Shown piece after piece: positions 45,314 through 64,000 of a stretch of DNA of 64,000 bases. A program made the translations under genes and the position numbers. Source of the DNA: Botryllus schlosseri. Its lineage: Eukaryota. How positions within the stretch are numbered: the stretch's first letter is position 1; every line of letters begins with the position of its first letter. The notes beneath the pieces were generated by a model. The model was not told where the DNA came from, ran no database searches, and saw nothing but the letters and a program-made list of their open reading frames with translations. The stretch is taken from positions 30,442,001 through 30,506,000 of the forward strand of contig CM119372.1 of assembly GCA_051294905.1 (NCBI GenBank), written 5' to 3'.

Positions 45314-45631
45314 ATGTCGCTTATGAGATTATACCATCAAAGAAATCAAGGATTGCAATTGACAGAGATGTCGAGAATTACAGCTTCTGATGTATACGAC
45401 ATTATAGAGAGGGTTCATTACAAGACTTGGAAAAGATTTGCTCGAGATCAACTTAAGTTAACAGACTTAGAAATTGCTGATTGTGAATACGCGGATCCCA
45501 AGAACTTAACTGAACAATGCTATCAAATGATACAAATATGGGTTCGTAAAAATGGTCGATGTGCTACAATTGACAGACTCGATGAATTAGCTAATAGTTG
45601 TATGTACGATTGTACTACCACACGGAATTAG
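45314..45631 (+). CDS. Stand-alone death-domain protein
   Basis: WKRFARDQLKLTDLEI..E...NLTEQCYQMIQIWVRKNGRCATIDRL matches the death-fold consensus WkxlArxLglsexeI..EqxyqmLxxW..G..AT; helix 6 appears short or spliced. Confidence 0.75.
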   Translation: MSLMRLYHQRNQGLQLTEMSRITASDVYDIIERVHYKTWKRFARDQLKLTDLEIADCEYADPKNLTEQCYQMIQIWVRKNGRCATIDRLDELANSCMYDCTTTRN

Positions 45632-45766
45632 CTCGAGAAGAAAAATGAGAACAGTCCATTTGATTTACCGTTATCAGATTTGAATGTCTCAATGAGTTTA
45701 CCGTTGGGAATTAACGCGCCAAAAGTAGTTATTTAAACACCACTACGAGTGAGCGGGACATGAGAA

Positions 45767-45934
45767 ATGGATATACTTCTGAGTGAAGACTCCGATATCG
45801 CGTTCTACGTGATATTATGCTCTTGCATTAAAACCTATTGCTGCATCAATATATACAAGAAGAAAAGAGATTCCGAGATTGCAGAAGCTTGCAACGACCT
45901 TAAAGCTGCTATCTGTAAAGTCTTCGGGCAATGA
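45767..45934 (+). CDS. 55-aa Cys-rich orphan (below ORF-track cutoff)
   Basis: MDILLSEDSDIAFYVILCSCIKTYCC...VFGQ*; stop overlaps the next ATG (ATGA). Confidence 0.45.
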   Translation: MDILLSEDSDIAFYVILCSCIKTYCCINIYKKKRDSEIAEACNDLKAAICKVFGQ

Positions 45935-46128
45935 AGCTAATATTCATAATATTCTTATTGATGCTAAATTGGAAATCAACGGATGCTCCGGAATTAATAT
46001 ACCCTTTCACCGTGAAATATCACGAAGAGGACTGCTTAGCTACTGAGCAAGAAGCAATGAAATTGATTTTACGTTATATCGCGGCATATTCTTTGACTAA
46101 CTGTACGCATATTGAAATAAACTATTGA
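45931..46128 (+). CDS. Small putative secreted orphan
   Basis: N-terminal MKLIFIIFLLML signal-peptide-like segment; coupled to the upstream ORF. Confidence 0.45.
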   Translation: MKLIFIIFLLMLNWKSTDAPELIYPFTVKYHEEDCLATEQEAMKLILRYIAAYSLTNCTHIEINY

Positions 46129-46337
46129 ATGATGATTTGCATTGTCTTGACTCGACTTTGTTAGGTTGTGCTTTCAGTGCCATATAGTGCTACTATAGCT
46201 TCGTGGTTCTGCTACAATTTTACTAACACTAAAGCTTTGAGAATAGAGAGAGACACAAATGTAGGATGAGATTTTATTATTCAGACCAAATATGAATTTA
46301 CCATTTATTTTCCATTAACACATATTCAACCAGTAAT

Positions 46338-46922
46338 TTAAAATTGCTGAGAATTTTGCATCCATCCCGCAGGGCGATGTCCGTATTGAGGTGGCGGTGG
46401 TAGCGGTGACACACCAGCATTCATTCCATAATAGGCGTTTTGTGGTGCTGCATTCATGCCATTAGTCGCGAAGTTCGCTTGAGGATGATCTTTCGATTGG
46501 ATTTGACCCGATTCTGCGATGAAGCGAGATGTTTCCTGCAGAATGAACGATAGCGGACCACAGTCAGGATCCTGTACCACATTACCTATATAAAGATATA
46601 GTTTATTAGTACAGAATTTCATTACATATTTACAATCTAACATACTTGGAGAATAAATTGTAAATTCGTCTGCTGGGTTAATCTGCTGGAAACATTCAAC
46701 ACCATCACGAGTATAGGTCGCGACGAGTCCCCCTTTGTGCGTGAAGACGGCTTTGTATCGCTGAATGGCGCCTGAAGTACGATGTAAGCGCAATTGATGA
46801 TGATCAATTACATCATCATTTATGCTTTCAAGTCGTAGCTTCGATATGTTATTAAAAACATATAGCTCCTTCCTCAATGGACCGCCGACAATTCTACTAT
46901 CACCTCTTATTGCGATGCTCAT
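46338..46922 (-). CDS. Hypothetical protein with C-terminal PPxY motif
   Basis: 194-aa clean ORF; SPLPPPPQY at 46382-46408. Confidence 0.6.
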   Translation of the reverse strand: MSIAIRGDSRIVGGPLRKELYVFNNISKLRLESINDDVIDHHQLRLHRTSGAIQRYKAVFTHKGGLVATYTRDGVECFQQINPADEFTIYSPSMLDCKYVMKFCTNKLYLYIGNVVQDPDCGPLSFILQETSRFIAESGQIQSKDHPQANFATNGMNAAPQNAYYGMNAGVSPLPPPPQYGHRPAGWMQNSQQF

Positions 46923-47000
46923 ATTGATTCTAAATTAATATAGAAAACACAATATAGTTATTATTCAGTGAAAACATGAATCACCGCACGAGAAAATAGA

Positions 47001-47354
47001 TTAAGAATGAGTCTTGTAATTTCTTTTACTTAGTAAAGCACAACGACTATTCACTTGTTCATGCTCAACCCATACATTATCACAATGACAGAGATTTTCG
47101 AATAGTTTTCCACACATATAGCATTTTGCTAAATTTTCGAACCCGAGATGAAAATAACCACATTCTGCTAATTGATAGGCACTACTGTTGAAATTTTCTT
47201 TGTAAGGTTCGAACGAACGTAATCTACGTTCAAAATTCATATTGAAAAACACAGCTTCGTTCTGCTTCGCATTTCGATTACAAATTTCATAAACGATATC
47301 ACCGACTTCATTCTTCATTGCCTGATGTGCACCTAACGGCTTAATAGACACCAT
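47001..47354 (-). CDS. Single-BIR (IAP-like) protein, no RING
   Basis: RLRSF, LAECGYF, and exact C-x2-C-x16-H-x6-C spacing (CYMC GKLFENLCHCDNVWVE H EQVNSR C). Confidence 0.88.
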   Translation of the reverse strand: MVSIKPLGAHQAMKNEVGDIVYEICNRNAKQNEAVFFNMNFERRLRSFEPYKENFNSSAYQLAECGYFHLGFENLAKCYMCGKLFENLCHCDNVWVEHEQVNSRCALLSKRNYKTHS

Positions 47355-47420
47355 CTCGTTATATTGAAGAACTGAAATATTTATAAGAATGGGAGCTTTT
47401 ATAGCTGTGTAGGATGCGAT

Positions 47421-47667
47421 GCTGTATTCTGATTGGAAGATTTTTCAACTTTGAAATGCTTGGTGGTAGTTTGATTTAAATTTACAACATTCCAAAGTTC
47501 GAATATGTTGTTGGTTAAAAATATATTGAAAGTATTGGTGTAGAACACGATACTGTATTCTGATTGGTAGATTTCCAACTTTGAAATGATTGGTCGTACT
47601 TTGATTTAATTTATGACATTCCAGAGTTTGAATATGTTGTTGGTTAAAAAATACGTTGAAAGTATGG
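47421..47667. promoter_or_regulatory. Duplicated ~120-bp CCAAT-containing module in the divergent intergenic region
   Basis: Two copies (47421-47538, 47553-47667) with GATTGG boxes between the minus-strand BIR gene and the plus-strand 48032 ORF; regulatory role inferred. Confidence 0.4.
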
Positions 47668-48031
47668 CTATGAATTGTAACGAACGTTACTTTCGCGCAC
47701 TTCCATTTATTTGAGAGTTCAATTGGAGTTTTACTTTGTTTTTAATAAATTTGATAGAGGTTCGTTTTACTGTCTACTATTCATTGCTTTTCAAACACTC
47801 AATGCATTGTTTGCTCTACCAACAAAGCGAAAACGACGGTTGGGATTGTCTTTTGTTCGAAGGGGGCTGTTACTATCTATCAACAATTTCAAATCCCAAC
47901 GGTTAATGTTTGTCCGTTAGTGAGCGAACATTTTTCTTATGTGATTCTGGCGCGAACCATTTTGGTATAAGATTAGCCGAATGTGAAATGAGGTATCACT
48001 AAATCTGAGCGAATCAGTGAAAGTATTCGAG

Positions 48032-49621
48032 ATGTCTTTGCAAGTTGAAGTAATTATGGATGATGATAGTCAGCAGTTGCCAAGCAACCAATCAACCCGA
48101 GAAAGCAGTGACCATGCATTGAGTGTAGAAATTCCGAATCATATGAAATGTGATCAAATGGATAAAGATGATGAGGAACTCGTCGTTATGGATCGATACT
48201 TTAGACCCATAACGAAGATCCCATCTGCTAAAGAAGTTCTTCTGAAATCTTTGAGCGAAGAAGAATTTCGCGAACGCGTTGTCATACGTCAGATATGTCC
48301 CGCATTCAAAACTGATTCATCCCCATCAAAACAACAGCCTAATGACATCGAGCTAATTAGCAACGAGACCCAACTTAAGGATCAATTGATACCTCTGAGT
48401 CAATCAACACCAGTAGGTGAACAACCCGTTGAGACAGTGACTAGCGATCCGTCCCCTTCTGTCAATCATCAAGCTTCGGGACAAGCAGTAGGCAATCCCG
48501 ACACGGAAATGGATTTGTCTCTTGGTGCGGAGGCGATTGCCGAAAGTAGCGAGGCGCTAGGTGAAATTTCTCGTGATAGCAATGAGATCGCGAAGCAAAT
48601 CCTACTGCGACGTATAGAGAAGAGCACATCGCAAGTTACAGAGCAACCTACTTTTAGTGAGCTTGTCGCCGATTCCACTCATATCTCAAGTGGTTTTTCC
48701 GACTCTAATGTTGGTTCTATACCAAAGCCGAATATACCATCATCGCCAGATTCGTCAATAAGGATCTATCCTAGATATTGGATCCGACATGATCGCCCGG
48801 TCATTAACCCACCGCAATGGCATATAGGTGACACTACCAAAGCAGAACAGAAGTATGATGAGAAGAATCGCGTATTCATGCGTTGGCTAGTTGGATTTAG
48901 AGAGGCGACAGAAATACATGATGGTTATCTCATGTATAGATATCTGGAAGAAAATATTGCTGAAATACAATATGGCGGACTGAAACGGAGTCTCAATTTT
49001 CTTCGTGCCGCTCTGATTGTAGCTATCGGTGAAAGCTTGACTCATGAAAAATTACTTGCTCCACACTTCTTTCTGGAAGGGGATTGCCTTTCTGGAAAGG
49101 AAGTATTGCACGAAATGCTTTTCGGTAGTGAAACAGCAAATTATTTGCTGTCGAGTTTGGAAAATTTGAATGCTTTCAAATATTATGATGCTACAAAATG
49201 TGTTTCTGTGTTTCCCAACTGCGGAACGCTTTTCTTTGAAAATACTGCTTTACAGGAAACAATTCTGACTATACATCGTACAGCAGTGCAATGTGAATAC
49301 GGGATTATTAATCCATCTTGCTGCTTCATGCTTTGTGATAAACAAAATGGCTCTGACTTGATGACTGTCAAACATCCTATATCATTCAGGGCTAAAACGG
49401 TCATTGTAAAATTTGGAAGGGGGATTTACGCACCTTCTCTGGCCAGTTTCAACAAACATGCCCGTCGTGATGTTCTGTTCGATTTAATAAAGAGAACTAA
49501 AACTTCAAATATTAAAGAAGTGAATGGCTGTGTTGAGAAGGATCCCTTGGCTCAAGTACTGTATCTCAGAGCATCTAGCTTCAGAACCAGAAAAGAAAAA
49601 GCTGATAATGATAGTCTTTGA
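48032..49621 (+). CDS. Hypothetical protein: acidic disordered N-half, possible degenerate SF3/D5-like NTPase C-half
   Basis: Long clean ORF; FFLEGDCLSGKEVLHEMLFG resembles an SF3 Walker A context. Confidence 0.65.
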   Translation: MSLQVEVIMDDDSQQLPSNQSTRESSDHALSVEIPNHMKCDQMDKDDEELVVMDRYFRPITKIPSAKEVLLKSLSEEEFRERVVIRQICPAFKTDSSPSKQQPNDIELISNETQLKDQLIPLSQSTPVGEQPVETVTSDPSPSVNHQASGQAVGNPDTEMDLSLGAEAIAESSEALGEISRDSNEIAKQILLRRIEKSTSQVTEQPTFSELVADSTHISSGFSDSNVGSIPKPNIPSSPDSSIRIYPRYWIRHDRPVINPPQWHIGDTTKAEQKYDEKNRVFMRWLVGFREATEIHDGYLMYRYLEENIAEIQYGGLKRSLNFLRAALIVAIGESLTHEKLLAPHFFLEGDCLSGKEVLHEMLFGSETANYLLSSLENLNAFKYYDATKCVSVFPNCGTLFFENTALQETILTIHRTAVQCEYGIINPSCCFMLCDKQNGSDLMTVKHPISFRAKTVIVKFGRGIYAPSLASFNKHARRDVLFDLIKRTKTSNIKEVNGCVEKDPLAQVLYLRASSFRTRKEKADNDSL

Positions 49622-49783
49622 ATAATATGTTTTGCTTGTACGATTGTTATTTGCATGAACGATTGTTACCAATTCGAATTTTGTTTGCACCTTGACATTA
49701 TGACTGAAAAAAACTTGGCTGATGTATATATTATTTGCATGAACGATTGTCACTAATTCGAATTTTGTTTGCAGCTTAACATT

Positions 49784-50194
49784 ATGAATGATAACTTAGC
49801 CGATATAGCTGCATCCACCACTCAGAGAGACATGACACAAATTAGCGATATGTCGGCCTTCTATCAAAGTCTAATGGATCCACAGGAACCTTCACGAAAG
49901 CGTCCTCGTCAAGATATTGGTTCTTACTTCGAACACATGACGGATGATCATTTGAAAATGCAAGCGATGTGGAACCGCCTTATTTCGATGGAAGGATTCG
50001 AACAAGACTGGACAAAAAATTTTCTTGTCATTGCAAAAAACGTGATCAAAGATATCGAAAAACTGTTGTGTGACGATAAAACAGACTCGAATATTCGTGA
50101 TACTGAGATTGCTAGATTGGACAGAATTAAGTTCATGTTTCTGTACGGTTTAAACCAATCTAAATTGCGCTTGAGATATAATTTCGTTTTCTAG
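49784..50194 (+). CDS. Hypothetical protein with RKRPR NLS-like motif
   Basis: Clean 136-aa ORF preceded by an acceptor-like TTTGTTTGCAG. Confidence 0.55.
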   Translation: MNDNLADIAASTTQRDMTQISDMSAFYQSLMDPQEPSRKRPRQDIGSYFEHMTDDHLKMQAMWNRLISMEGFEQDWTKNFLVIAKNVIKDIEKLLCDDKTDSNIRDTEIARLDRIKFMFLYGLNQSKLRLRYNFVF

Positions 50195-50374
50195 TAAGTG
50201 AAATTGTGCTTGTTTTACAGATATAGAGTAAATATAGGTAATATTTTTCAATACTTTGTTGACACACGACTTTACGACTGGATACCGTATCATACAAGCG
50301 CAAACGGTAAGCAAAAACTGCGATTGAAATAAGCTTCTCAATTTCTAATGTTCTATGTTTTACAGATAGCATAA

Positions 50375-53300
50375 ATGACTCTACGCAGGCGATATTTGGA
50401 TCGAGATTGGATCGTCGACGAATCCTTGGGCTTTGAAGATGCCGCCGTCGAAGTAATTGAAGAGCACTACGATTCGATCATTGACTCAACGTGGACTTCG
50501 AGAAATCGCGTGCGACATATAGTCAATATTCGGATGATTGAACGAGATCCCGCTGACATTCACGCGCGTATCGCAAGTATATACCCGCAACGATTTAGAC
50601 AATTTAAAATAAATTATGGCTTTGGGTATCTACTATATAATCGTGAGTCTGAGCGATATACGTATTTTCACCCCCAATCATCTCAAGCTGTCCTCGATGT
50701 CCCAAGAACTATCATATCGCGTGAAGATTTTGATTCGTTTAGAAATGCAATTGATTTATCGGCCGGTTACGATTATGCGAATCGAGTCAGACCGGACACA
50801 AAATTTGTTTGTTCGGAGGTGCTACACATTACTTTATTCCTGTATGAAATGGAAAGACCCTTACTTAGCGGAGGTGTTGTCTCAGAAGAAATGGAAAGAT
50901 TATCCAAATGTAAATTTATCAGAGTTTTCATTCGTAATCGTAAAGGAGTACCATATACAGATAATCTCTGCCTGTTTCGATGCCTATCATTTAGTTTAAT
51001 TAAAAAACTTGACGAAAGTCATGTTTCTCAATTGACTACCCAATTTGAAAATCGTTACGGAATCTCAGCTGTTAATGGTATATCCCTCGAGCAACTATCG
51101 AAAGTGGAAGCATGTTTTAACGTTAGAATATTACTTTACGAAAAACGGGAACAAACCACGGTCTTGCGACGAACTTCCAATGCACCTGGACTCACAATTC
51201 ATATTCACATGTTTGAAAATCACTGTTGCTTAATATCGAACATAGAGATTTATACGTCTACTTTTATGTGTGATTCGTGTAAAACATTCTTTACCTTGAA
51301 TGCTAGTTTGAAACGACATATTGAAAATCATTGTAATTCTTCGAAAAGGTATCGATACGGTTCTGGTGTTTATCGTCCTAAAGCGACGGTGTTTGAAGAT
51401 TTGGAAAATGAAGGTATATTTGTTAGTGAAGAAAAACGTTTTTACAAATTCAGAATTTGCTTTGACTTTGAGAGTCTCTTAGTAAAAGAAAATCTCAAGT
51501 CCGATACACCCAAGGTAAACTTTACCAGTAAACATGTCCCGCTCTCAGTCTCACTGTGTGATAATGTCACGAACGAAACAACTACATTTATTTCCAATGG
51601 GAACCCGCGTGATCTAATTAAAGAAATGGTTGATAAGCTTCATGAAATTCAAGAAATTGCGTCTTCGCAAATGCGTGCTATATATGACACCGAGTTGACT
51701 ACTCTTCGCGACTTGATTGAGGAACGTAAAGTGATTGATCCGATTAAAACGCGATCGTACCTGGAGTTGTTGTATCATCGCTTTCAAACGTGGTTAGATC
51801 AAATACCCGTAATCGGCTTCAACTCGGCTCGCTATGATTTAAATCTGTGTAAAAAATATTTGATCGCTCTTTTGCGAGAGGAGAGCGGCTTTTTTGTATT
51901 GAAGCGAAACAGCAGTTATCTCACTATCTCCACAAATAAATTGAAATTTCTAGATATATCTCTGTTCCTCGCTCCGGGATATAGCCTGGATGCGTATTTG
52001 AAAGTGTACGGTGATGGAGTAAACAATAAATTTTACTTTCCATATGAATATATGACGCATATTGATAAATTGAAAGAGACATCGCTACCGCCACACGATA
52101 GCTTTTATAGTAGTCTTCGTGGGCATAATATTACAGCTGAACAATACCAAGAATGCGTCAATACTTGGAAGCGTCTCGATATGAAAACAATGAGGGATTT
52201 TTTAAAATACTACAATGAATGTGATGTGGTCGGCTTTCTCGTCGCGGTAAATAACAACTTCGACTTTTATAAAAAAACTGGGGATTGACATGTTCAAAAA
52301 TCACGTCAGCTTACCGAGTATAGCTAATCGACTTATGTTCGATCAAAGCTGTGAAATCGCTTTATTCAATAAAGCCAATGCCGATCTCCATCACACTGTA
52401 ATTAATAACTTAATTGGTGGATTGGCACAAATTACAAACAGGTATGCAATGGCAGACGAGACCAAAATTCGCATTTTGAAGTATGGAGACGCAGCCAAAG
52501 ACGTGAAATCTATAGTAGGATATGATTGCAACGCATTATACTTGCACGCCATTGATCTCAATATGCCAACTGGATATGTCACCCGTTGGCTGTATGATGA
52601 AGGGAAACAGAAATTTCATAGAAAACCGACTTATCCATCCATGATCGAACTCGAGTGGTTAACTTATCAAAGCATTGTTCGCGGTATTCCGATTCGTCAC
52701 GCTTGGAACGGTCCGCAAGTTAAACTCGGAGCCCGTAGAATTAGCGTTGATGGATACTCAGCAGACCGGAAGTTAATATTCAACATGGACGGCTGTTGGT
52801 GGCATAATTGTATAAAATGTTATCCTTGTAATCAAAATATTAATCATAATCGACGCATTAAAACCGAAGAAACCACCGCCTATTTTGAAGGCCTAGGATA
52901 TCAGGTCATTCGAGTGCGCGAATGTGAATGGAAAGCAATGAAGCGCGATCCAGACATTGCGCGCCTCGTTGCACATTTACAAAGGAATGTGACAAAAGAA
53001 TATTTACTCTCGCAAGAACAAATACTCGATCGAGTCGTTAACAATCGCTTTTTCGGTGCGATAGAATGCGACGCGCACTGCCCAGATCTTTTGAAATCTA
53101 AGTTTGAAGAGTTACCGCCTTTCTTTAAGCACATCGAAATTAATGAATGTGATATCGGTCCGCATATGGCTCAATACGCAAGGGAAAATAAAGTCAAGTT
53201 TCCGAAAAAAGCGCTCGCGTCCAGTTATTTCATCGAAAAGCAATTGGTTACTACCGATTTGTTGAGTTGGTATTTGCGTCACGGAATGGTGGTCACGCGT

Positions 53301-54245
53301 GTTTACCAAGCTTTGGAATATGAGCCTAAGAGAGTATTTCGCAACTTCGTAGATCGCGTAACAACGCTACGGCGTAAAGGTGACGTCGTTCCTAGAGACC
53401 GTGCACTTGAAATACAGGCTTTAACCTTTAAAATGGTTGGAAATTCAGCGTTCGGAACGACTATACAAAATCCAGCCAAATATAAAAATCACAAATATGT
53501 GACTCGCGATGAAGTTCAAGCGCTCATCAAAAAACCGAATTTTATCGACGCCGATGAAATTGACTCGGACTTAATTGAAGTAACCTCTCGGCCCGATACG
53601 ACTCGCCTTGATCAACCCGTCATCGTAGGGTTCTTCATATTTAATCACAGTAAGCAACGGATGTTGTCGTTCATGTATGACTTCCTCCACGTGTACATAA
53701 ACGATTGCGATCAATTTCATCTTGAACTTGACACCGACAGCTGTTACCTTGCGATATCAGCTGATTCTATCTACTCATTGATCATCCCTTCAAAGCGTAA
53801 AGAGTTCTTTGAAGTTCATGATCAGTGGTTGGTTCAAAGGGCGTGCGTTAAGCATAAAACAGACTTCGAGAGGGACCCAGTCACTTTCAAAATCGATGAA
53901 GCGTGCTGTATCGCTGCTCATAATTACTCTAAGCGAACACCGGGTTTGTTTAAAGTAGAATGGAGTGGACGGGGGTTTGTAGGCCTCAATTCAAAAACCT
54001 ACTATTGCTCGGGTGATACAGATAAATATTCCTCAAAAGGTTTGAGTAAAACGGCCTGCAAAACTTTCAAAGATTTCAAAGGTGTATTGCAAAACCGTTC
54101 TATATCCGGTGGATATAACTCCGGCTTCCGCTGCTTTCAGGGAGAAATATTCACATATCATCAATATCGTTCCGCTTTATCATACGGTTACTATAAAAGA
54201 ATTGTATTGAGTGATGGGATTCATACTGTACCGCTTGCGTTGTAA
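50375..54245 (+). CDS. pPolB of element 2, split by a 1-nt insertion in an A7 run (52271-52277)
   Basis: Removing one A gives YKKLGIDMF, matching YKTLGIDMF of element 1. All Exo and Pol motifs, the Vsr-like insert, Zn finger and an N-terminal terminal-protein-like region are present. Confidence 0.95.
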
Positions 54246-54276
54246 TAAAATGTTGACTGTTTTGTAATAAAAAAAA

Positions 54277-54897
54277 ATGGAGCGTGCACGTGTCTTAAAT
54301 TCTCCGTTCAGGATGATTATAGCTGGAACTTCGAGCTGTGGTAAAACATGTTTTGCCTATCGACTTGTGCAAAATGCCAAGAAGATCATCGCGCCTTATC
54401 CAAGGAAGATTATTTGGCTGTACAATAATTATCAGCCGTTATACGATAAAATGAAGGGTGTGAAATTCCACCAAGGTCTAGACGAGTTAGAACATTTACA
54501 GCAGGGTGGTAATGGACATACTCTGATAATACTAGACGACATGATGACGGAAGCACAACAAGCGAGGGACCTATTCATACGTCATTCCCATCATAATAAT
54601 GTCTCAGTAATCCTATTAGTCCAGAACATATTTCACCGAGGTGGTGGTTTTCGTGACGTCACTCTCAGCGCTAGCTATATTGTGGTGTTTAAAAATCCAC
54701 GTGACGTTTCACAAATACGTTACCTTTCACGTCAAATGTTCCCGGACAATCCTACTATGCTTACAGAAGCATACAAAAGAGCAACTCGCGAACCTTATTC
54801 ATATATTGCCATTGATTTAACCCAAGAGACACCGGAAAAGTATCGACTTCGTACCAACATATTTCCGGACGAACGCATGACTGTGTATTTGGAATAA
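54277..54897 (+). CDS. Packaging ATPase
   Basis: GTSSCGKT Walker A, LIILDD Walker B; homolog of 3106..3723. Confidence 0.93.
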   Translation: MERARVLNSPFRMIIAGTSSCGKTCFAYRLVQNAKKIIAPYPRKIIWLYNNYQPLYDKMKGVKFHQGLDELEHLQQGGNGHTLIILDDMMTEAQQARDLFIRHSHHNNVSVILLVQNIFHRGGGFRDVTLSASYIVVFKNPRDVSQIRYLSRQMFPDNPTMLTEAYKRATREPYSYIAIDLTQETPEKYRLRTNIFPDERMTVYLE

Positions 54898-54932
54898 ATA
54901 GCGCGCTGCTCGAACGATAATCATCATTCGGG

Positions 54933-55343
54933 ATGGCTAAGGACGCGCGAAGACTCATTTTGAAAAAACGTTTAAAAGATCATCTTACCAAATTGAAAAC
55001 TTTACGGAGGGCTAAAAACCCCGAACGTATTCAGTTATTGAAGCATAAGGAATTTGTCGCTAGTGTGTGCGAGTGTCTTCGAAACCTGGTGTCGGGCGAT
55101 GTACCTATTTCTAACGCAAGAAAATCTAAATTGAAAAAGCACAAATCCAGTATACGGAAGGTCCTGTGTTGCAAAACTCAAAAAGGCAGGCGCAAAGTTT
55201 TGCAAAAGGGTGGCTTTCTTTCGGGTAAATACGTGTAACTTTAATTCAATACTGTATCTAACGTTATTCCGTTCCTAGCCATTTTGAGTGCCGCTATTCC
55301 GATACTGGGAAGCCTCTTGGGCGGACTGACGAGAAATGCGTGA
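54933..55343 (+). CDS. Spliced small basic protein (exons 54933-55224, 55279-55343)
   Basis: GTAAAT donor 55225, CTAAC 55258, AG 55278; product ends GGFLS-AILSAAIPILGSLLGGLTRNA*. Confidence 0.75.
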
Positions 55344-55800
55344 GCTGTATTTTCCACCGCTACTAACAAAAGATGGATACGAAAGGAAATTTGACAAACA
55401 TATTGCCAAAATCAGAGACTCGGATTTGACTCGCGTGCAAAAACTAGCGCTTTACAAACACGGTATCAATGTCTTGAGAAACCTAAGAAAGAATGACGCG
55501 GCGATAAAAGCGCTCGCAAACGCTTCGTCACTCGACGATAAAAACGCGTCGCCGCCCGTCATTAAAGCAGACACAGCGCGCGCGCCACCATCTGATGACA
55601 CAAACGCGACGCCGGGGCCCCCGCACGCGTTTAATTGGAGCGTTACTAAACAGGAGGGAGATACTCCAAAGAAGAAAAAACCCAAGAAAAAAGCAAAGAA
55701 AAAGGTCGACCTCAAACCTCCGCTTAACTGGAAAGAACTCGATACTCCGCGTCAACAAAAGCCCAATCAACGCTACTTTGGAAAGCTATGGACAAACTAG
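55336..55800 (+). CDS. Conserved hypothetical basic protein
   Basis: Homolog of 4159..4497. Confidence 0.75.
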   Translation: MRELYFPPLLTKDGYERKFDKHIAKIRDSDLTRVQKLALYKHGINVLRNLRKNDAAIKALANASSLDDKNASPPVIKADTARAPPSDDTNATPGPPHAFNWSVTKQEGDTPKKKKPKKKAKKKVDLKPPLNWKELDTPRQQKPNQRYFGKLWTN

Positions 55801-56792
55801 ACTACTTCGATCCCAAAAAACCCAATTCTTATAGGGGTGCTTACCTACAGAAAGACAGCGAGTGGTTGAAGGGACAAGATAGTTATACCTATCACTTTCC
55901 CATTCGAAAAAGATTTAAACGTCGCCAAGTTGTTGTGTCAGGGATCGGAGCGCAGTTTCAAAGCGATTTAATCGACGTACAGTCTATTTCAAAATACAAT
56001 CGTGGATTTAGATATATTATTCTTATTATTGATGTTTTCTCCAAGTATGTGTGGATGATTCCGATTAAAAATAAATCGAGTGACAACATGATATCTGCTT
56101 TCAAAAAAGTTTTCAAAGAGAGCCTTCCATTAGTGCTACAGACAGACAGAGGTACAGAATACACGAGTCGAGCTTTTCAGAATTTTCTCAGAAAAAACAA
56201 GGTGCGGTACTTTTACACGAAAAGCGAATTGAAATCTTCGATTGCGGAAAGGGCTATCCGTAGTTTCCGTCAAATCTTCTACCGCTATTTCACGAAAAAT
56301 AACACCAGCAATTATATCGATGTGCTAGATGATATGGTCTATTCGTACAATCACACCAGACACCGCTCGTTAGGGATCCCTCCTAGTGAAGTTAATAGAC
56401 ATAATCAAGAAAGCATTTGGCAAAAAATGTATGGATTTCGCGACTCCAAACTACCCACTTTAGCGGTCGGGACCCCTGTACGCATCTCGAAAATTCGCAA
56501 TCTGTTTGAGAAGTCTAGTCGACCCAACTGGCAACCCGAGATATTTTACATTGTCAAAGCCATGAAAGGAGATCCGCCAACCTATCGCTTACGTGATTAC
56601 AATAACGAAATAATTGACGGACAATTTTACAGACAAGAAATTCAACCCGTTACTGAACCGCAAAAATGGCAAGTCGAAAAGATTATAAAGAGGCGACGGC
56701 GTGGTAAACGTAGTCAGTTTTTAGTGAAGTGGTTGAATTATGGACCGGAATTCAATACCTGGGTCGATCAAAAAGATATCGTCGAACCGTAA
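55788..56792 (+). CDS. Integrase with chromodomain
   Basis: QSDL, QTDRGTEY, AERAIR; WQVEKII..FLVKWLNY..NTWV. Confidence 0.95.
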   Translation: MDKLDYFDPKKPNSYRGAYLQKDSEWLKGQDSYTYHFPIRKRFKRRQVVVSGIGAQFQSDLIDVQSISKYNRGFRYIILIIDVFSKYVWMIPIKNKSSDNMISAFKKVFKESLPLVLQTDRGTEYTSRAFQNFLRKNKVRYFYTKSELKSSIAERAIRSFRQIFYRYFTKNNTSNYIDVLDDMVYSYNHTRHRSLGIPPSEVNRHNQESIWQKMYGFRDSKLPTLAVGTPVRISKIRNLFEKSSRPNWQPEIFYIVKAMKGDPPTYRLRDYNNEIIDGQFYRQEIQPVTEPQKWQVEKIIKRRRRGKRSQFLVKWLNYGPEFNTWVDQKDIVEP

Positions 56793-56952
56793 CTTTTATC
56801 AATTCATTGCTCAAGTTATAATTATACTGCTCATCGTGAGTTTTTCGCTGTATAATTTGAGTGTCGTGCAAGACAACAAAGAGCTTTGGGTGTCGCTGTT
56901 ATCTTCGTGTGTGGGATATATGTTACCGGCTCCAAAGATACCCAAACTATGA
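56740..56952 (+). CDS. Small two-TM protein
   Basis: Homolog of 5437..5646. Confidence 0.7.
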   Translation: MDRNSIPGSIKKISSNRNFYQFIAQVIIILLIVSFSLYNLSVVQDNKELWVSLLSSCVGYMLPAPKIPKL

Positions 56953-57779
56953 GTTATATTACGTTATTTTCCAATGCCTCCATGGACAGGTTTCCACAAA
57001 ATACAGCTGCGGTTTACACCAACGAACTAGACACCCCAAGAAATGTAGAAAGAAGCGAAGTCGCGTTGACTGAGATTGGCTTCCCAACCGATTTTAACGA
57101 ACGGATCGCAATCACAAATAACTACTACGGTTTCGACATTATGGGACCCAGTGAAGTCACAAGAAGATTGAAGTTCAAAATTGGTGAATATGAATCCGTA
57201 TATGACATGTTTAAATCATTGGAGAGCATTAATCCCGATGTGAAAGTCAAGTGTTTTCCTGAAAGTGATAACCTGACGGTTTCGATTCCACACAAAAACA
57301 TTGCAGCTAGTGCAAGACCGGGAGAGGATACGCGATATCGAATCGACACCAGAGAGTACGATTATACTGGAACACTTGAGCATCTAGAATTGGCGGTAGT
57401 TACCCTAACTCTCCTACGTTTCATATTGCCGAAGAATAGAGCAGACCTATCCGCATACTTTTTCACTGACAAGAGAATACATCTCAATTTTGATGTACGA
57501 CCCTTGTCGAAAATCGATTTCGTATACGTTCATTGCGACATCATTGAACCCCAAGAGTCTAGCGGTTCACTACAGCGTTTATTACGAGTTGTGAAAGTCG
57601 ATGGAGATAAGAAGGTGTTTTCAAAATATTACATAAAACCTTTCTTTCTTCCGCTAAGTATAAATAGATTGGAACGTGTAAAAATTTCCTTGCTGGATCA
57701 CAAAGGTGGTGAAATTCCGTTTCGAAGCGCTCCATCGAGCGCTGTACTTCAATTCCGAAAGCGCGGTATCGCACTATGA
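56949..57779 (+). CDS. Minor capsid protein 1
   Basis: Homolog of 5643..6452. Confidence 0.75.
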   Translation: MSYITLFSNASMDRFPQNTAAVYTNELDTPRNVERSEVALTEIGFPTDFNERIAITNNYYGFDIMGPSEVTRRLKFKIGEYESVYDMFKSLESINPDVKVKCFPESDNLTVSIPHKNIAASARPGEDTRYRIDTREYDYTGTLEHLELAVVTLTLLRFILPKNRADLSAYFFTDKRIHLNFDVRPLSKIDFVYVHCDIIEPQESSGSLQRLLRVVKVDGDKKVFSKYYIKPFFLPLSINRLERVKISLLDHKGGEIPFRSAPSSAVLQFRKRGIAL

Positions 57780-58525
57780 AATACATTCACATTAGCAGTT
57801 TGGAATCAGATTTTGTTCTCGAGCTAGCACGTCCGATTACAGGAAAATACGAACTGGGCCTAGCGGAGTTCTCGATTCGCAACGAGTTCCAACCTACTTT
57901 ACCTGCTTTCGACGCTCTGTTATGGCAATTTCAGGATGAGAAAACATCGCCTCTGATTCAAGTGGGAAGTAAAAATCATTATTTTTACCCCAAGGGTAAT
58001 TATTATGACTTCAAAAGTTTGATTGATAGAATCAATCGCACGCAGGACCAAGTATATATTAACCAGCTAGGAAGTTCTAGTGGTATGTTAGTCATTCCAC
58101 CTTACAAATCGGGTGCGTTTCCTAATTTCCTGAAGAATCCAACCGGAGTCAGAAATCCGGTTTTCGTGTATGGAAAGCTTAAGAAGAAAAAGCTGCTAGG
58201 AGGGAATTATTTAACTTCAGAGATCACTCTGAGGGATTCCATTACGCCTATCACCAATTTATTAATTTATACCGATCTCATTCGACCGCAATCAGTCGGC
58301 GACACGAAAGCTCCGCTATTACGAAACATCCCCATTACGAGTAGTGTCAATGAATATCAACATCATATATTCGAAAAAATATACTTTTTCCCTATGATTA
58401 CGGAAGACGCTCGTCGAATTCAGATTAGTATCAAAGACGATAAAGGTACGGGTATAAATCTGAAGGGGTCCATGATTGATATCACACTTGCTTTACGTCA
58501 TCATGAGAGCACATTACTGTTGTGA
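57776..58525 (+). CDS. Minor capsid protein 2
   Basis: Homolog of 6449..7171. Confidence 0.75.
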   Translation: MKYIHISSLESDFVLELARPITGKYELGLAEFSIRNEFQPTLPAFDALLWQFQDEKTSPLIQVGSKNHYFYPKGNYYDFKSLIDRINRTQDQVYINQLGSSSGMLVIPPYKSGAFPNFLKNPTGVRNPVFVYGKLKKKKLLGGNYLTSEITLRDSITPITNLLIYTDLIRPQSVGDTKAPLLRNIPITSSVNEYQHHIFEKIYFFPMITEDARRIQISIKDDKGTGINLKGSMIDITLALRHHESTLLL

Positions 58526-58871
58526 TCGCGATGCCTTTCAACAATACTATCGTGTGCAAAGTGGTAATGGCATAAACTATTTTCGAGGACGAGTGCAAAG
58601 AGGACACGGTTTAGGAAATCTCTTTCGTAGTTTGGGACGAAGTGTTGTACCATTGATATCAAAAGGGGCGAAAGCTCTCGGCAAACAACTACTCCATACA
58701 GGAGCAGAAGTAGCTTCTGACGTATTGCGTGGACAAAACGTCGGTGAAAGCTTCAAAATAAGAGGAAAACAAGCAGCTAGCAAAGCTCTTGACAACTTCC
58801 TAGGCAAGAGAAAGGCACCTAGAAAAAAGACCACGAAACGGAAAAAGCGGCGACGGGACATTTTCGATTAA
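58503..58871 (+). CDS. Basic core/membrane-active protein (QRGHGLG)
   Basis: Homolog of 7149..7520. Confidence 0.7.
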   Translation: MRAHYCCDRDAFQQYYRVQSGNGINYFRGRVQRGHGLGNLFRSLGRSVVPLISKGAKALGKQLLHTGAEVASDVLRGQNVGESFKIRGKQAASKALDNFLGKRKAPRKKTTKRKKRRRDIFD

Positions 58872-58921
58872 ATAGAACTCTCCCTACTTTATTTTTTCAT
58901 TAGCTAGCAGACTCGCGAAAG

Positions 58922-60199
58922 ATGACGGAGCTAATTCACGCGAAATCTGCCGAAGGCGTACATCCTAGCTTGGATCTTTTTCAACTCCCACCTACCCAAA
59001 CAAGCGTGGAGAAGAAACGGATCATTAAGATTCCACCTGTGTCGGACAACGCAAGCGTGATTATTTACCGCTATGAAGGCTGTGACGATTTTATTGATTT
59101 AAGCGAATCCTATTTTTTATTTCGCTTGAAACTATTGAAAGGCGATGCGGATCTAGCTGCCACGGACAGCATTGGAGTTGTGAATAACATTCTTGATTCT
59201 CTAATTTCTCAACTTCACATCAAAGTCGGGAACCATACCCTGAAACAAGACGTGAAGCTACAATGTTATTCAGCCTACTTACACTATCTGTTCACACCTC
59301 ACGACGTGCAAGAGACAACGCTTCTTACACAAAGATGGGTCAAGGACACAGAGAAGCAATTAGATGATTCGGGCCTAGGCAATGATGCGGCTAACAAAGG
59401 TCATAAGGCGAGAAATTTGCCGTATGCCGGGAGCAAAGTCGTTGAAATTCGCGGTAAAATACATCATGGGTTGTGTTTGCAAGACCGCTATATTTTGGAC
59501 GAGGTTCCGTTAGAGTTCGAATTAACATTGAATCCGAAAAGTTTCTTTCTGTTTGGAGCCGCTACCAGCAATTTCAAAATCATCAAAAAAGAATTGCACC
59601 TATGTGGAGTGCGGGTAACCGAAGATGTAAAATCTGCCTTGATGGTAGACGCACCGGCTAGGTATCCCTTTATGGACATGAAGCTGCTGACTCGAACTTT
59701 TGCGGCTAACACCACTCAAATCGATATTGGTAATCTGTATTCGGGAACCCTGCCGACACGTTTGATTATAGCAATGGTGAAAACCGAGGCATTCCAAGGA
59801 GCATTAGATAAGAACCCATATAATTTTATTCATAATAAAATGAATCGGGTTGAATTGAAAGTAAATGGTTTCCTTATGCCAGAGGGTGGCTACGAACTTG
59901 ATTTTGAAAACAATCATTATTCCGAGGCCTACCTAAATCTCATTCAATCTATGGGTGCCATCGAACGACAAAAAGGCTTGATTTCACCTTCCGAGTTCGC
60001 AAATGGATACACGCTCCTGGCGTATAATTTGCGAGGTGACGATTTAGATGACTGCTTCGAGCTGCAGAAAAGTGGAACGATCAGTCTTCGAATCACCTTT
60101 CCTGCGGCAGGTGTTGAGAGCGAAACGACACTGCTGTGCTTTATGGAATTTCAAAAAATACTGGAAATAAGCCAAGCTCGCACGGTGACCGTGATATGA
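58922..60199 (+). CDS. Major capsid protein
   Basis: 425 aa, colinear with 7570..8847. Confidence 0.88.
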   Translation: MTELIHAKSAEGVHPSLDLFQLPPTQTSVEKKRIIKIPPVSDNASVIIYRYEGCDDFIDLSESYFLFRLKLLKGDADLAATDSIGVVNNILDSLISQLHIKVGNHTLKQDVKLQCYSAYLHYLFTPHDVQETTLLTQRWVKDTEKQLDDSGLGNDAANKGHKARNLPYAGSKVVEIRGKIHHGLCLQDRYILDEVPLEFELTLNPKSFFLFGAATSNFKIIKKELHLCGVRVTEDVKSALMVDAPARYPFMDMKLLTRTFAANTTQIDIGNLYSGTLPTRLIIAMVKTEAFQGALDKNPYNFIHNKMNRVELKVNGFLMPEGGYELDFENNHYSEAYLNLIQSMGAIERQKGLISPSEFANGYTLLAYNLRGDDLDDCFELQKSGTISLRITFPAAGVESETTLLCFMEFQKILEISQARTVTVI

Positions 60200-60657
60200 A
60201 CGGACAAGAAATAGATGAAATATTGTATAGTTACCATGCTACGAAACAACACTATCTAGGGAATTTCCCTATTGATCAACTCCCTCAGCGCCCAAAACCT
60301 CCTTATTCAATTGTGATCAATTATGATGAAAGTCACAAGGAAGGTAGTCACTGGGTTTGCATATATGCTGATCAATATGAAACCCATTTTCACGATAGTC
60401 TGGGTATCACTCCATTCAGGATTGAGATTGCGAGTTTCCTTGATCCCGAAAATTATACTAGCTCAATAAAACCATTACAGCATGAAAGGTCAGACGCTTG
60501 TGGAGCTCATGCAATTGCATATATCGTGAAACGCTCTACTGGTATGAGCACACTACAGTATTTGGATCACTTCGGTGATGATCGAAAAGAGAACGACGAT
60601 ATCGTAGTGGACTTCGTTAGAATCTTGAAATGGGAGCAACTAGTTTCACCATCATAG
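60196..60657 (+). CDS. Adenain-like protease
   Basis: GSHW, HDSLG, LQ..SDACG; ATGA overlap with the MCP stop. Confidence 0.92.
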   Translation: MNGQEIDEILYSYHATKQHYLGNFPIDQLPQRPKPPYSIVINYDESHKEGSHWVCIYADQYETHFHDSLGITPFRIEIASFLDPENYTSSIKPLQHERSDACGAHAIAYIVKRSTGMSTLQYLDHFGDDRKENDDIVVDFVRILKWEQLVSPS

Positions 60658-60686
60658 AATACTTTGGAGATGATGAGAAGGCCTAC

Positions 60687-60947
60687 ATGAAAGTCCAAGG
60701 AAAAATTATTGTCATGAATGCAAATCGTATTCATAGAATTTCTTTCGAGCCGTTTCACATACGCATTTACCCGCATGATAACGAAGTTACAATTTTCCGC
60801 GGGTCTGATTGGATCCCAGTGCGTTTTCCTAAAAATTGTATGTATATAGATGTGTTGTCGAAGCATAGAATTATTCGTCGTAACCGCGGTGAACTTGTCG
60901 TTTTTCGTAGACTAAAATTATGGGAATTTTTGAGAAATCGCTTTTAA
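60687..60947 (+). CDS. Orphan, beta-strand-rich
   Basis: Clean ORF followed by TAATAAA. Confidence 0.5.
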   Translation: MKVQGKIIVMNANRIHRISFEPFHIRIYPHDNEVTIFRGSDWIPVRFPKNCMYIDVLSKHRIIRRNRGELVVFRRLKLWEFLRNRF

Positions 60948-61014
60948 TAAATTCGTGTGTATTCATCGGAGTTATATATAAGTGGTTATTGCTCGGGATC
61001 TAGTCAGTGTCATC

Positions 61015-61755
61015 ATGAATGCGCTTATAGTATCGATGTGTTATCGCGGAAAGCCGCACCATGTCGAAAATGAAGGAACGTTACAAGACATTCAGATTAT
61101 GACAGATATCTTAGTACAGAAATTCAAATTCAAGCCTGAAGATATCAAAGTGTTGCGTGAAGAGCAAGCCACTCTTGGAAATTTTTCCAGAGAGCTTCAA
61201 ACGATGGCCGATAGTAGCGCCAAGATAAACTTCATATATTTCGTCGGTCACGGATTTTCATGTCCAAATAACACAAAAGAAAATGATCCTGAAGCTCGCG
61301 ATTCCGGATTTGTATTTTATGATAGGCATCTACTCGATGATGATATGTGTGAGCTATTAAAAAGCTTTCGTAAAGATACAAAAAACCTACTCATGTTTGC
61401 GCAGTGTTATAGTGGTAACTCTGCCGATTTGAAATTTCATTTACGAGAAGACGCTGCTTCGCAAGCACTCAAACGCAAACGAGACGTAAAATCCAAAACT
61501 GTTCTCATAAGTGCAGTTAGTGACGATCAAATCAGTTGGTGTTTTGAAGACGGTAGTGCTTTTGCAAAGAATTTCAGAACCGTCATACGTGAACACGACG
61601 AAATCAAATTCTTCGATCTTATGCGTAAATTGCGACAACTAGATAAGAGACAAAAGTGTTCGATATCATCAAGCTTCAAATTGGATGAACACGATCATCT
61701 CATTCGAAAAAGAAGTTTCAGTTGGATAAAATCTCAATGGAAGAAATCGAAATAA
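61015..61755 (+). CDS. Metacaspase-like cysteine protease (C14)
   Basis: ALIV..Y...GTLQDI..M...L, T..N, YFVGHG (His), D.DE-like loop, LLDDD, FAQCYSG..DL (Cys), ISAVSDDQ.S, GSAF, Q...SSS follow the metacaspase motif order. Confidence 0.8.
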   Translation: MNALIVSMCYRGKPHHVENEGTLQDIQIMTDILVQKFKFKPEDIKVLREEQATLGNFSRELQTMADSSAKINFIYFVGHGFSCPNNTKENDPEARDSGFVFYDRHLLDDDMCELLKSFRKDTKNLLMFAQCYSGNSADLKFHLREDAASQALKRKRDVKSKTVLISAVSDDQISWCFEDGSAFAKNFRTVIREHDEIKFFDLMRKLRQLDKRQKCSISSSFKLDEHDHLIRKRSFSWIKSQWKKSK

Positions 61756-61840
61756 TAACTATCGTTGCAACCGCGCTGTTATTTCTGGAATTCTTATTAT
61801 ATACGCTATTTTGCTGTGGAGAAGAATGTGAACGTAAATC

Positions 61841-62182
61841 ATGACTATGGCTCGCATTTGTATTGGTCCCCTACGCTTGAGTAGTAATGGAGATCGTAGC
61901 TATTATGAAAAAACAATTGTATTACCGAAAGTGAGATCTATCACTATTCCTTTCTCATGTGAAATAATGTATCGTACCAATAAGATCGTAGTGAAGAAAC
62001 TGCATGTTCCTCACTACGGTAAGATTGAATCTCCGACAATCACTGTCTGCAAAGACAAACATTACTGTTTACCGCGTACCTGTCCTATTCTTATAGAATT
62101 TAAAGGGAATGCGATCGTTGTAAAAAATATAATCGTATTCGAAGCGTTACACAACGCGCGATTTTATGATGCTTGTTACTAG
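61841..62182 (+). CDS. Orphan, beta-strand-rich
   Basis: Clean 113-aa ORF followed by AATAAA. Confidence 0.5.
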   Translation: MTMARICIGPLRLSSNGDRSYYEKTIVLPKVRSITIPFSCEIMYRTNKIVVKKLHVPHYGKIESPTITVCKDKHYCLPRTCPILIEFKGNAIVVKNIIVFEALHNARFYDACY

Positions 62183-62266
62183 TTTGATATGTCTGTAATA
62201 AAATCACAAAACAACTACGGATCCTCATTCGTGTTCTAGTCAGATACAGCATCAATAGAAAAGTCG

Positions 62267-62337
62267 TGGAGACTACGGGAATTGAACCCGTATCTTCTAT
62301 TTGCAAGACAGATACTCTACCATTGAGCTAAGTCCCC
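62267..62337 (-). tRNA. tRNA-Ala (anticodon UGC)
   Basis: GGGGACT TA GCTC AATGGTA GAGT A TCTGT CTTGCAA ATAGA AGAT ACGGG TTCAATT CCCGT AGTCTCC A: all four stems pair, G3:U70 alanine determinant, A73, A- and B-boxes, TTTT terminator 5 nt downstream, no encoded CCA. Confidence 0.93.
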
Positions 62338-62446
62338 ATTCAGACGAATAACAACGCAACCAGACGTTGATTTTTGTTATTTATTACAAGAACAATACGG
62401 AATGTATAATGCAATTCCACGCTACTCGCGGTGGATTAAAACAACA

Positions 62447-62926
62447 CTATTTTTCTTGCTGGGTGACTTGCGTATCTTCCATTGCATGTCTACGGGTATA
62501 TTGAGTAGCTAGTTGGAAATAACGTTCCTTATTTTTTAAATACATTTCCGCACTCTCTTGATCCATCGGATCATAAGGGTTTGGTGAAGCGAGCAATGAA
62601 CGTATTGATATCAGTAGAGTGGACGTTGTCATCGCTGGTGACCATTCCTTCTGTAAAATATCGACACATATGGTACCTTTACAGCTTACGTTAGGATGGA
62701 ATATCCGTGTTTCAAATCGCATTTTAGGAGGCTTGAATGGATACTCGGTAGAATATTCGATTGATAATCTGAACACACCACCTTCGTAGGGTGTTCCGTT
62801 TGGTCCTTGGATCGTTGCCCACCAACTATACATATTCTTTTCATCGAATGGTCCTGCTCGGATAGCTTCGTAAGCATTCTGCTTAAATTTTGCTTGTTCA
62901 TATATCAAACGCTTCAAAGCACGCAT
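62447..62926 (-). CDS. Ubiquitin-conjugating enzyme E2 (UBE2D/Ubc4-5-like), intronless
   Basis: MRALKRL, WWATIQGP.GTPYEGGVF, YPFKPPK, IFHPN..GTICVDIL (catalytic Cys), WSPA, PNP.DP; an upstream ATG at 62959 is also possible. Confidence 0.93.
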   Translation of the reverse strand: MRALKRLIYEQAKFKQNAYEAIRAGPFDEKNMYSWWATIQGPNGTPYEGGVFRLSIEYSTEYPFKPPKMRFETRIFHPNVSCKGTICVDILQKEWSPAMTTSTLLISIRSLLASPNPYDPMDQESAEMYLKNKERYFQLATQYTRRHAMEDTQVTQQEK

Positions 62927-63092
62927 GCCTATCGAATGATAGTATTCGAACTGTCGCACTTGCTTTCAAATAAATTATAATTCAATCTAATTATACATGT
63001 AAATAGAAATAGGTTACAGAATAATGAATGATATGATTAATGTATGAAATGACATGCGTCGCGCATTTCAAATCTACAACAAAAAAAAAATA

Positions 63093-63419
63093 TTAATGTA
63101 TGAGATGAGATGCGTCGCTCATTTCTAATCTGTAACAATTTTTCATGAATAGGCTGTTTAATTCCACGGCGGTTCCTTGTTTGATAGTAATACACTTTCC
63201 ATTTATGTGGACATCTTCCTCATGAATCTTCATTGATTTTTTTTCGTTGTCTTCGTCACGTATGATCACCCACGTATATCCTTTACGGCGTTTTATTATG
63301 AACTGCTGCTCCAATTTTATCGTCGCTACACCCGTTACTATTATACTCTTTGAAGTTTGGTCCATTGTAATATTTGTTGGAGATTCGAATTTGACATCGT
63401 TAATCACTATTCGTCCCAT
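63093..63419 (-). CDS. Orphan, beta-strand-rich
   Basis: Clean 108-aa ORF transcribed inward from the right terminal region. Confidence 0.5.
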   Translation of the reverse strand: MGRIVINDVKFESPTNITMDQTSKSIIVTGVATIKLEQQFIIKRRKGYTWVIIRDEDNEKKSMKIHEEDVHINGKCITIKQGTAVELNSLFMKNCYRLEMSDASHLIH

Positions 63420-63490
63420 CGTCGCTCAATTTCGTATTGAATGGCTTAGCATCAAATTTGTGACTTAAATAGTCGCCTAAACTTCTTCTA

Positions 63491-63942
63491 CAATCATTGT
63501 CAATACAATGATGATCACACCATCGCGGAATAAACATATATATATGATTGCAAACTTGTCACGTGATCAAAGCTATGTATGGTGCAATATCGCTAGGTTA
63601 TTACCCATTGTGCAATAACGGTCACACAACTCTTTCGCGCGCTTTTCTCTGTTTGATTTGAAATTCAAAAGTGGTCACGTGATTGGAGTGGGTCTAAATA
63701 CCCACTTTGACGCCTTAATCAAAACAACAGCAACGAACGCTAGGCGAGATGGGCAGAAGACTGCAAATCCTGAACAATGGAGGGTGTAACACCAGAACGA
63801 GCGAAAATATACTTCGAACATTTGGACAAGCACTGGGAGAGGAACTGGGATGGAGCTTGCGATGGGATGGCTGTATAGGAATAATTGGACTGTATATAGG
63901 AATAAGAATGATTTGTAGTGATGCTAAAAAAATATATAATTA
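63491..63942. repeat. Imperfect, block-shuffled inverted repeat of the left terminal region of element 2
   Basis: 63628-63683 = rc of 44933-44988; 63540-63597 ~ rc 45200-45255; 63491-63520 ~ rc 45042-45071; 63893-63942 ~ rc 45248-45297. Confidence 0.85.
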
Positions 63943-64000
63943 TTTTCTTCATCGTCACTTATAATACATGTATATCCTTCATGACGTTTTAAAATATATA

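Follow-up and report, generated by a model that had tools for sequence, protein, structure and literature searches.

A tRNA gene in the right arm of an animal Polinton

The window, by which we mean the whole 64-kb stretch of DNA analyzed here, ends within a family-A Polinton of 19,490 bp on the plus strand (44881..64000, continuing 370 bp past the window end). The element is bounded by inverted repeats of ~380 bp with AGTAGT/ACTACT ends and a 6-bp TTCAAC target duplication, in agreement with the Maverick hallmarks given in PMC8097293 (terminal inverted repeats, (AGT)2//(ACT)2 ends, 6-bp target duplication). These ends, a retroviral-type integrase with an A32 ATPase, and a capsid homologue place it among the Polintons/Mavericks. 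The A32-type packaging ATPase (54277..54897; PF04665), the integrase with chromodomain (55788..56792; PF00665, PF00385), and the major capsid protein (58922..60199; E = 3.5e-40 to a homologue of that name) all lie on the plus strand, and the capsid defines the element families. The capsid search returned nine homologues, which came without genomic context; a sequence search of the PDB gave no match to the capsid, and a single-sequence model was unusable (pLDDT 30). A protein-primed DNA polymerase B and an adenain-type protease, with no Pfam match, are tentatively assigned from position, size, and motifs. The putative polymerase is split into two ORFs (window 50375-54245), and a second family-A copy, L164, has its break there too; it is a single ORF of about 1,300 aa in those family-B and family-C copies that were examined. 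The left arm holds a BIR-domain (IAP-like) ORF (47001..47354, minus strand), identified by domain search, and a death-domain ORF (45314-45631).

The right arm contains two convergent sets of genes. On the plus strand lie a caspase-domain ORF (61015..61755; PF00656) and a 113-aa accessory ORF (61841..62182; no Pfam family), the latter with a family-B homologue in the same place; on the minus strand lie an E2 ubiquitin-conjugating enzyme (62447..62926; PF00179, E = 1.4e-46) and a 108-aa accessory ORF (63093..63419; no Pfam family). Flanked by these element genes, ~2.0 kb inward from the Polinton right end, is a tRNA-Ala(UGC) gene (62267..62337, minus strand). As the initial annotation had it, the gene sits between the poly(A) signals of two convergent genes, AATAAA at 62197..62202 (plus strand) for the 113-aa gene and AATAAA at 62380..62385 (minus strand) for the E2 gene, with no SINE body or tail around it. 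The minus-strand orientation goes beyond what that annotation gave.

The tRNA gene is 71 nt long and carries the G3·U70 pair, A73, a C32·A38 pair, and a 4-nt variable loop, with no encoded CCA tail. ARAGORN calls no other tRNA in the window and types this one as Ala(tgc) on the minus strand, and against Rfam RF00005 positions 62267-62337 score 73.4 bits (cut-off, 29 bits; E = 3.5e-14) over 71/71 model positions, with all pairs standard. Internal A and B boxes are present, and a T4 run 4 nt past the gene (62259..62262, minus strand) is the predicted Pol III terminator; T3-T6 runs follow the Ala gene in sister copies. The complete 71-nt cloverleaf with G3·U70, A73, Pol III boxes, and TTTT that had been read from the letters alone is thus borne out by ARAGORN, Rfam, and the sequence, and with its cloverleaf, G3·U70/A73/NGC anticodon, A and B boxes, T run, and unencoded CCA the gene has the sequence features of a eukaryotic cytosolic tRNA-Ala.

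The neighboring E2 gene is transcribed, and RNA reads end at ~62380, where depth stops at the poly(A) signal just short of the tRNA. The four raw-read RNA (cDNA) runs, from libraries not built for tRNA, gave 137, 6, 0, and 11 reads on the stretch, none of them over the tRNA. Nine E2 reads carry a non-templated 5′ leader joined at the AG at 62987-62988, marking the transcript as trans-spliced; the leader sequence occurs 254 times in the genome and is identical to the spliced leader that PMC3795323 names "Chordata 1", which makes a tunicate the likely host. In two runs, nine reads skip 62650-62782 (131 nt, GT-AG, minus strand), an out-of-frame intron inside the E2 ORF. Run X1, guessed to be RNA, was discounted as evidence of expression, its contigs spanning genes and intergenic DNA alike.

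Elsewhere in the window, a second Polinton (1-about 13300) belongs to family C, with a capsid 69% identical and tandem repeats, and its right arm is without accessory genes or tRNA. At 40370-43952, two long ORFs of 309 and 798 aa on the minus strand are bracketed by tandem 177-bp arrays. The family-A Polinton appears to sit within this other large element, the arrays and inverted ends of which turn up again past the window.

Distribution of the tRNA genes among element families

A DNA search of the genome returned 26 matches to the Ala gene, and 26/26 lie inside Polintons, which shows that the gene is not a dispersed host tRNA-like repeat. Half of them (13/26) share flanks and constitute family A, with the tRNA identical in 10/13, the window copy included. 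The remaining 13 match over the tRNA only, at 82-86%; 12 lie in family B, whose capsid is 85-86% identical to that of family A and whose arm carries a Bcl-2 gene, and one lies in lineage C′ (capsid 68% identical; IAP gene). When element copies were identified by capsid matches (99 scored of 274 candidates), the Ala gene was found in 13/14 family-A and 12/12 family-B copies, the 14th family-A copy having lost the whole arm. Two of the three outcomes that the initial annotation named as refuting it, a copy of a dispersed host repeat and absence from sister elements, thus did not come about. A second C′ copy has other DNA where the Ala gene would be, and in the 65-70% capsid class tRNAs occur in 1/40 right arms. 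Among distant families (capsid 33-36%), no tRNA was seen in 12 right and 3 left arms from the 25 matches listed. The position of the Ala gene also changes between families, lying between two same-strand genes in 11/12 family-B copies.

The element tRNAs comprise two further kinds. tRNA-Pro(UGG) occurs in 11/12 family-B copies, and tRNA-Leu(UAA) in 8/12 of the family-B left arms examined (e.g., L491:3709-3791). Related Leu(UAA) genes form inverted pairs 8-19 kb apart, mostly ~9.4 kb (e.g., L523-L528, L533, L534; 40 scored of 347 candidates), which probably sit in palindromic satellite elements. One family-A copy carries in its left arm (L160:7435-7513) a family-B tRNA-Pro(UGG) with its T run, 79 bp at 98.7% identity amid foreign flanks, indicating that tRNA genes can move as units between elements; such exchange may in turn inflate between-family identity. 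The L160 match runs exactly from the mature 5′ end to the terminator, which fits an RNA-mediated copy or strong selection. The tRNA-Pro(UGG) of C′ (L074:4434-4505) has U3·G70, G4·U69, and A73, although it is a single copy in a decaying element and these features may be decay; G4·U69 is a mis-alanylation signal in some animals. A third tRNA remnant beside this Pro gene had no Rfam match and was discarded; we also did not count the low-score ARAGORN calls (L043, L086, L097, L168, L506) or the Thr/Ser pair of host type in L106 as element genes.

Contigs of three runs labelled as other organisms contain the Ala gene without difference, with differences at nearby flank sites, the labels being coded and the runs possibly close relatives or mixed samples. 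Across window 60600-63450, runs coded as four organisms hold 59-79% of sampled words, which corresponds to ~98-99% identity; these shared arm words could reflect close relatives, mixed samples, or recent between-species spread.

Evidence for selection on the tRNA

Compared among lineages A, B, and C′, copies of the Ala gene agree at 62, 59, and 61 of 72 positions. Capsid four-fold sites are 33-39% identical between the same lineages, and the 60-nt flanks of the gene show shuffle-level identity between families. Eight distinct variants exist, with 20/72 columns variable, and G3·U70, A73, and the anticodon are invariant in 8/8. Pairing is retained in 94.6% of stem cells, the mismatched ones (9/168) including pair 6-67 in 3/3 family-B variants. 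Three pairs change on both sides, a level reached in 14/500 shuffles by a control that ignores relatedness. Within family A, 5/71 tRNA sites and 49/444 flank sites are variable, a difference that is not significant (p = 0.41).

Selection on structure, suggested from the window copy alone by the initial annotation, is thus corroborated by cross-lineage conservation, invariant identity elements, and pairs changed on both sides. This pattern of sequence change argues that the Polinton tRNA-Ala is a genuine accessory tRNA gene under selection.

Comparison with host tRNAs and origin of the element genes

The window Ala gene matches the host tRNA-Ala(UGC) of the same genome at 51/72 positions. The two are alike in anticodon, G3·U70, A73, the 7-nt D loop, and a T-run terminator; they differ in the anticodon stem and at the loop pair, which is C32·A38 in 26/26 element Ala genes versus U32·U38 in 12/12 host genes, and the 4-nt variable loop belongs to family A. 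The 37 matches to a genome-wide Ala(UGC) pattern divide into 25 element-type and 12 host-type genes. Most differences fall in the anticodon arm, with 7/17 matches at positions 27-43 versus 44/54 outside it, whereas the T stem departs from that of the host at a single pair, which is compensated. The claim that both stems depart from the animal form therefore stands in full for the anticodon arm and, for the T stem, to the extent of that single pair.

The element Pro gene matches its host counterpart at 64/72 positions and the element Leu gene at 74/83. The Pro genes shift in the same manner as Ala, with A38 in family B and C32·A38 in C′. The Leu gene shifts in the opposite direction at position 32 (C to U), has a weak terminator, and serves a split box. 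The Pro and Leu genes resemble their host counterparts far more closely, so that host capture is clear for them and, for Ala, likely but older. In our reading, the body of the Ala tRNA probably derives from an ancient capture in an animal host, and the Pro and Leu genes are clearly more recent captures. Charging by the alanine enzyme does not depend on the anticodon arm, which left the Ala arm room to change.

This arm is similar to that of host tRNA-Thr(AGU) and also to Ala arms of the common prokaryote type. A chimera with host tRNA-Thr(AGU), to which the arm matches at 12/17 positions versus 7/17 for host Ala, was not established, as unselected viral-contig Ala arms match as well (median 10-12, maximum 14-15). 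A phage origin is not favored: arm-selected phage genes reach 61-63 matches, but as the best of many. Among the matches listed, the host-type D loop that the element gene has occurs in 2/104 viral Ala(UGC) genes and C32·A38 in 5/104 viral-contig Ala(UGC) genes, and the element Ala body is nearer the host than is the median of the viral genes in that same list. Neither viral contigs nor prokaryote genomes gave any match to the exact-type Ala pattern; a looser pattern had two in metagenomes, both apparently in prokaryote-type tRNA clusters, and phage blastn yielded only 75-80% matches, mostly to tRNA-Gly. A tRNA-derived SINE or host pseudogene was rejected on the confinement of all 26 matches to Polintons and the 51/72 identity to the host gene, and an integration-site tRNA on the location of the gene inside the right end and not at the boundary.

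Codon usage and decoding capacity

GCA accounts for 71/266 Ala codons in the element (0.27) and 66/366 in the host (0.18; p = 0.011), the host figure coming from a small sample of 5,734 codons biased to actin and tubulin. Elements are more A/T-ending in general, with a GC3 of 0.38-0.39 versus 0.52-0.54 in host genes. Ranked by element-over-host enrichment among 59 codons, TTA is 4th, GCA 9th, and CCA 16th, and the GG, TC, and CT boxes, for which there is no matching element tRNA, shift as much as GCA. In two distant families in which no tRNA was seen, GCA and CCA use is as high or higher (0.30-0.38). The proposal that the tRNA supplements GCA decoding thus holds as far as GCA is enriched in the element and fails on specificity, since unmatched boxes shift equally; specific codon compensation is not supported, and given the general shift and the equal GCA and CCA use of tRNA-free distant families it would be at best part of the answer.

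By pattern count, host Ala genes number at least 12 UGC, 36 AGC, and 15 CGC (total, 63), and by hand count host Pro genes number at least 18 UGG versus at least 37 and 28 of the other two types (total, 83); all are lower bounds, and by these counts UGC is the scarcest host Ala type and UGG the scarcest host Pro type. All three element tRNA kinds (Ala, Pro, Leu) have U34 and read A-ending codons. In bacterial tRNA-Gly(UCC), C32·A38 removes codon discrimination, and with C32 one tRNA reads four codons (PMC10853795, PMC6103715). The element tRNA-Ala, with a C32·A38 loop and U34 in a four-codon box, has the loop expected of a superwobbling U34 tRNA of the Mycoplasma/organelle type, and by analogy C32·A38 would favor firmer or wider GCN reading on animal ribosomes.

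Candidate roles of the Polinton tRNA-Ala

We propose, with a probability of about 0.55, that the tRNA-Ala is a charged Pol III tRNA that would add to the translation supply when the element multiplies. The features that are conserved are those needed for charging and decoding, and a translation role is therefore taken as the most likely one. Host RNA polymerase III would likely transcribe the gene; the product would likely be processed and receive alanine by way of G3·U70, and the charged tRNA would likely join the translating pool during multiplication of the element. Weighing against such a supply is that the largest related family lives without tRNAs (39/40 right arms).

An unlikely variant holds that the tRNA, although used in translation, serves counter-defence: its rebuilt anticodon arm would escape a host nuclease or modification step that acts on tRNA-Ala and tRNA-Pro and removes the host forms during infection or stress. 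The clustering of host differences in the anticodon arm (7/17 versus 44/54 matches) and the loss of the uridines at 32 and 38 in Ala, in parallel in Pro, are what it would predict; it would also account for the weak codon signal, and the element tRNAs accompany cell-death-control genes (BIR, Bcl-2, death domain, caspase domain). A model of this kind has been proposed for phage tRNAs (PMC10264068). However, the analysis identified no tRNA-cutting nuclease in this host, and the Leu gene gains a uridine at 32. C32·A38 is, besides, a common loop pair in tRNAs generally, and could come from drift or decoding.

It is more doubtful still that the gene yields a non-translational Pol III RNA, whether a decoy, an anti-apoptotic RNA (e.g., by cytochrome c binding), or a source of tRNA fragments. 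The tRNAs are found only in lineages with anti-apoptotic accessory arms, and binding of tRNA to cytochrome c, with a block of the apoptosome, has been reported (PMC12958161); yet a decoy would have no need of an invariant anticodon, G3·U70, and A73, or of three different U34 isotypes. The window has no Rfam match to a VA RNA, the tRNA being its sole Rfam match, and no extended 3′ hairpin follows the gene, on which grounds an adenovirus VA RNA was rejected. A VA-type decoy, like a pure insulator, both of which the initial annotation had entertained, fits poorly with an anticodon and G3·U70 invariant in 8/8 variants and with a gene position that shifts between families.

There is little probability that the gene is a neutral passenger, in which case a tRNA captured in the distant past would be replicated with the element and would owe its likeness solely to recent between-family exchange. 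The non-significant within-family comparison (p = 0.41), the many related elements without a tRNA, and the one tRNA-Pro that did jump between families are what such a passenger would leave behind, but the changes at 20/72 columns spare all identity elements and include compensated pairs, and the flanks share nothing between families. Least probable is a boundary element, in which TFIIIC or Pol III on the Ala gene would insulate or stop two convergent Pol II units: E2 transcripts stop just before the tRNA, and in each of A, B, and C′ the last gene on the plus strand has a tRNA facing its 3′ end (the Ala gene in A, C′, and L025, the Pro gene in B), but 11/12 family-B Ala genes lie between two same-strand genes, A and B boxes would suffice without acceptor identity or anticodon, and a genome this compact has no free space other than gene junctions.

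Relation to known virus-borne tRNAs

Virophages of protists carry tRNA genes (PMC6905037), and Polinton-like viruses yielded 558 tRNA matches in ~8,300 genomes, Ala and Pro among them (PMC12220804). Table S12 of that study holds 55 Ala and 8 Pro entries, of which the rows checked (22/55 Ala, 8/8 Pro) are all protist, and no metazoan or chordate row was found in the tRNA table of its supplement. For these protist viruses, codon compensation and counter-depletion have been proposed as tRNA roles (PMC12220804, PMC6905037). They resemble the present element in belonging to one broad group of small, integrating dsDNA viruses and in having one or few tRNA genes; their hosts, however, are protist or unknown, whereas the carrier here is an integrase- and pPolB-type animal Polinton, in which host and element tRNAs can be compared within one genome.

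Vertebrate Mavericks and adintoviruses have the same architecture, with core genes and two accessory regions (PMC8097293, PMC8502044). The word "tRNA" is absent from PMC8097293, and in the adintovirus paper tRNAs are flagged solely on MELD viruses, which have other replicases, in the Fig. 6 legend (PMC8502044). One survey, in which Polintons are not listed, reports single tRNA calls for several families of animal DNA viruses (PMC6409571), and tRNAs of large DNA viruses also appear in PMC13191261. Like the tRNAs of phages (PMC10264068) and of large DNA viruses (PMC6409571, PMC13191261), the Polinton tRNA is virus-borne and has an anticodon loop unlike that of the host; unlike them, it belongs to an animal host, a genome under 20 kb, and a system with no known nuclease. 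Among animal dsDNA viruses, adenovirus VA RNAs and gammaherpesvirus tRNA-miRNA genes have Pol III type-2 promoters, but the Polinton gene differs from these in being a full canonical tRNA with conserved identity elements and no trailing hairpin.

A search of the literature by title and abstract start found no report of tRNA genes in animal Polintons, although Repbase, GenBank adintovirus annotations, subscription papers, and preprint supplements could hold one. The earlier remark that no tRNA is a standard Polinton feature thus agrees with the literature search for animal Polintons and is too broad for protist virophages and Polinton-like viruses, which have been published with tRNAs.

Virus-encoded tRNAs have mostly been studied in phages and giant viruses. 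Here, tRNA-bearing and tRNA-free element families stand side by side in one genome, and the element Ala differs from the host gene at 21 positions, so that sequencing can tell them apart; with host and element genes thus distinguishable, roles in codon supply, nuclease escape, and decoy action become testable in an animal. Element-borne genes make up 26 of the ~38 Ala(UGC) genes found, which would skew tRNA-adaptation indices and tRNA gene counts for the host. That a tRNA is under selection adds to the evidence for an active virus-like phase of these Polintons.

The parallel retuning of the loop in Ala and Pro is the most distinctive feature of these genes and the part most worth testing. A speculative extension, which we hold to be improbable as a whole, is that the tRNAs of animal Polintons form a small kit of exchangeable genes, with parallel retuning of their loops (U32·U38 to C32·A38 in Ala and Pro), such that one viral tRNA could read a whole four-codon box on animal ribosomes or survive a host tRNA-cutting defence. 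If true, an integrated virus of 20 kb would act as a translation-reprogramming agent, and tRNA-directed antiviral immunity in invertebrate chordates would be suggested.
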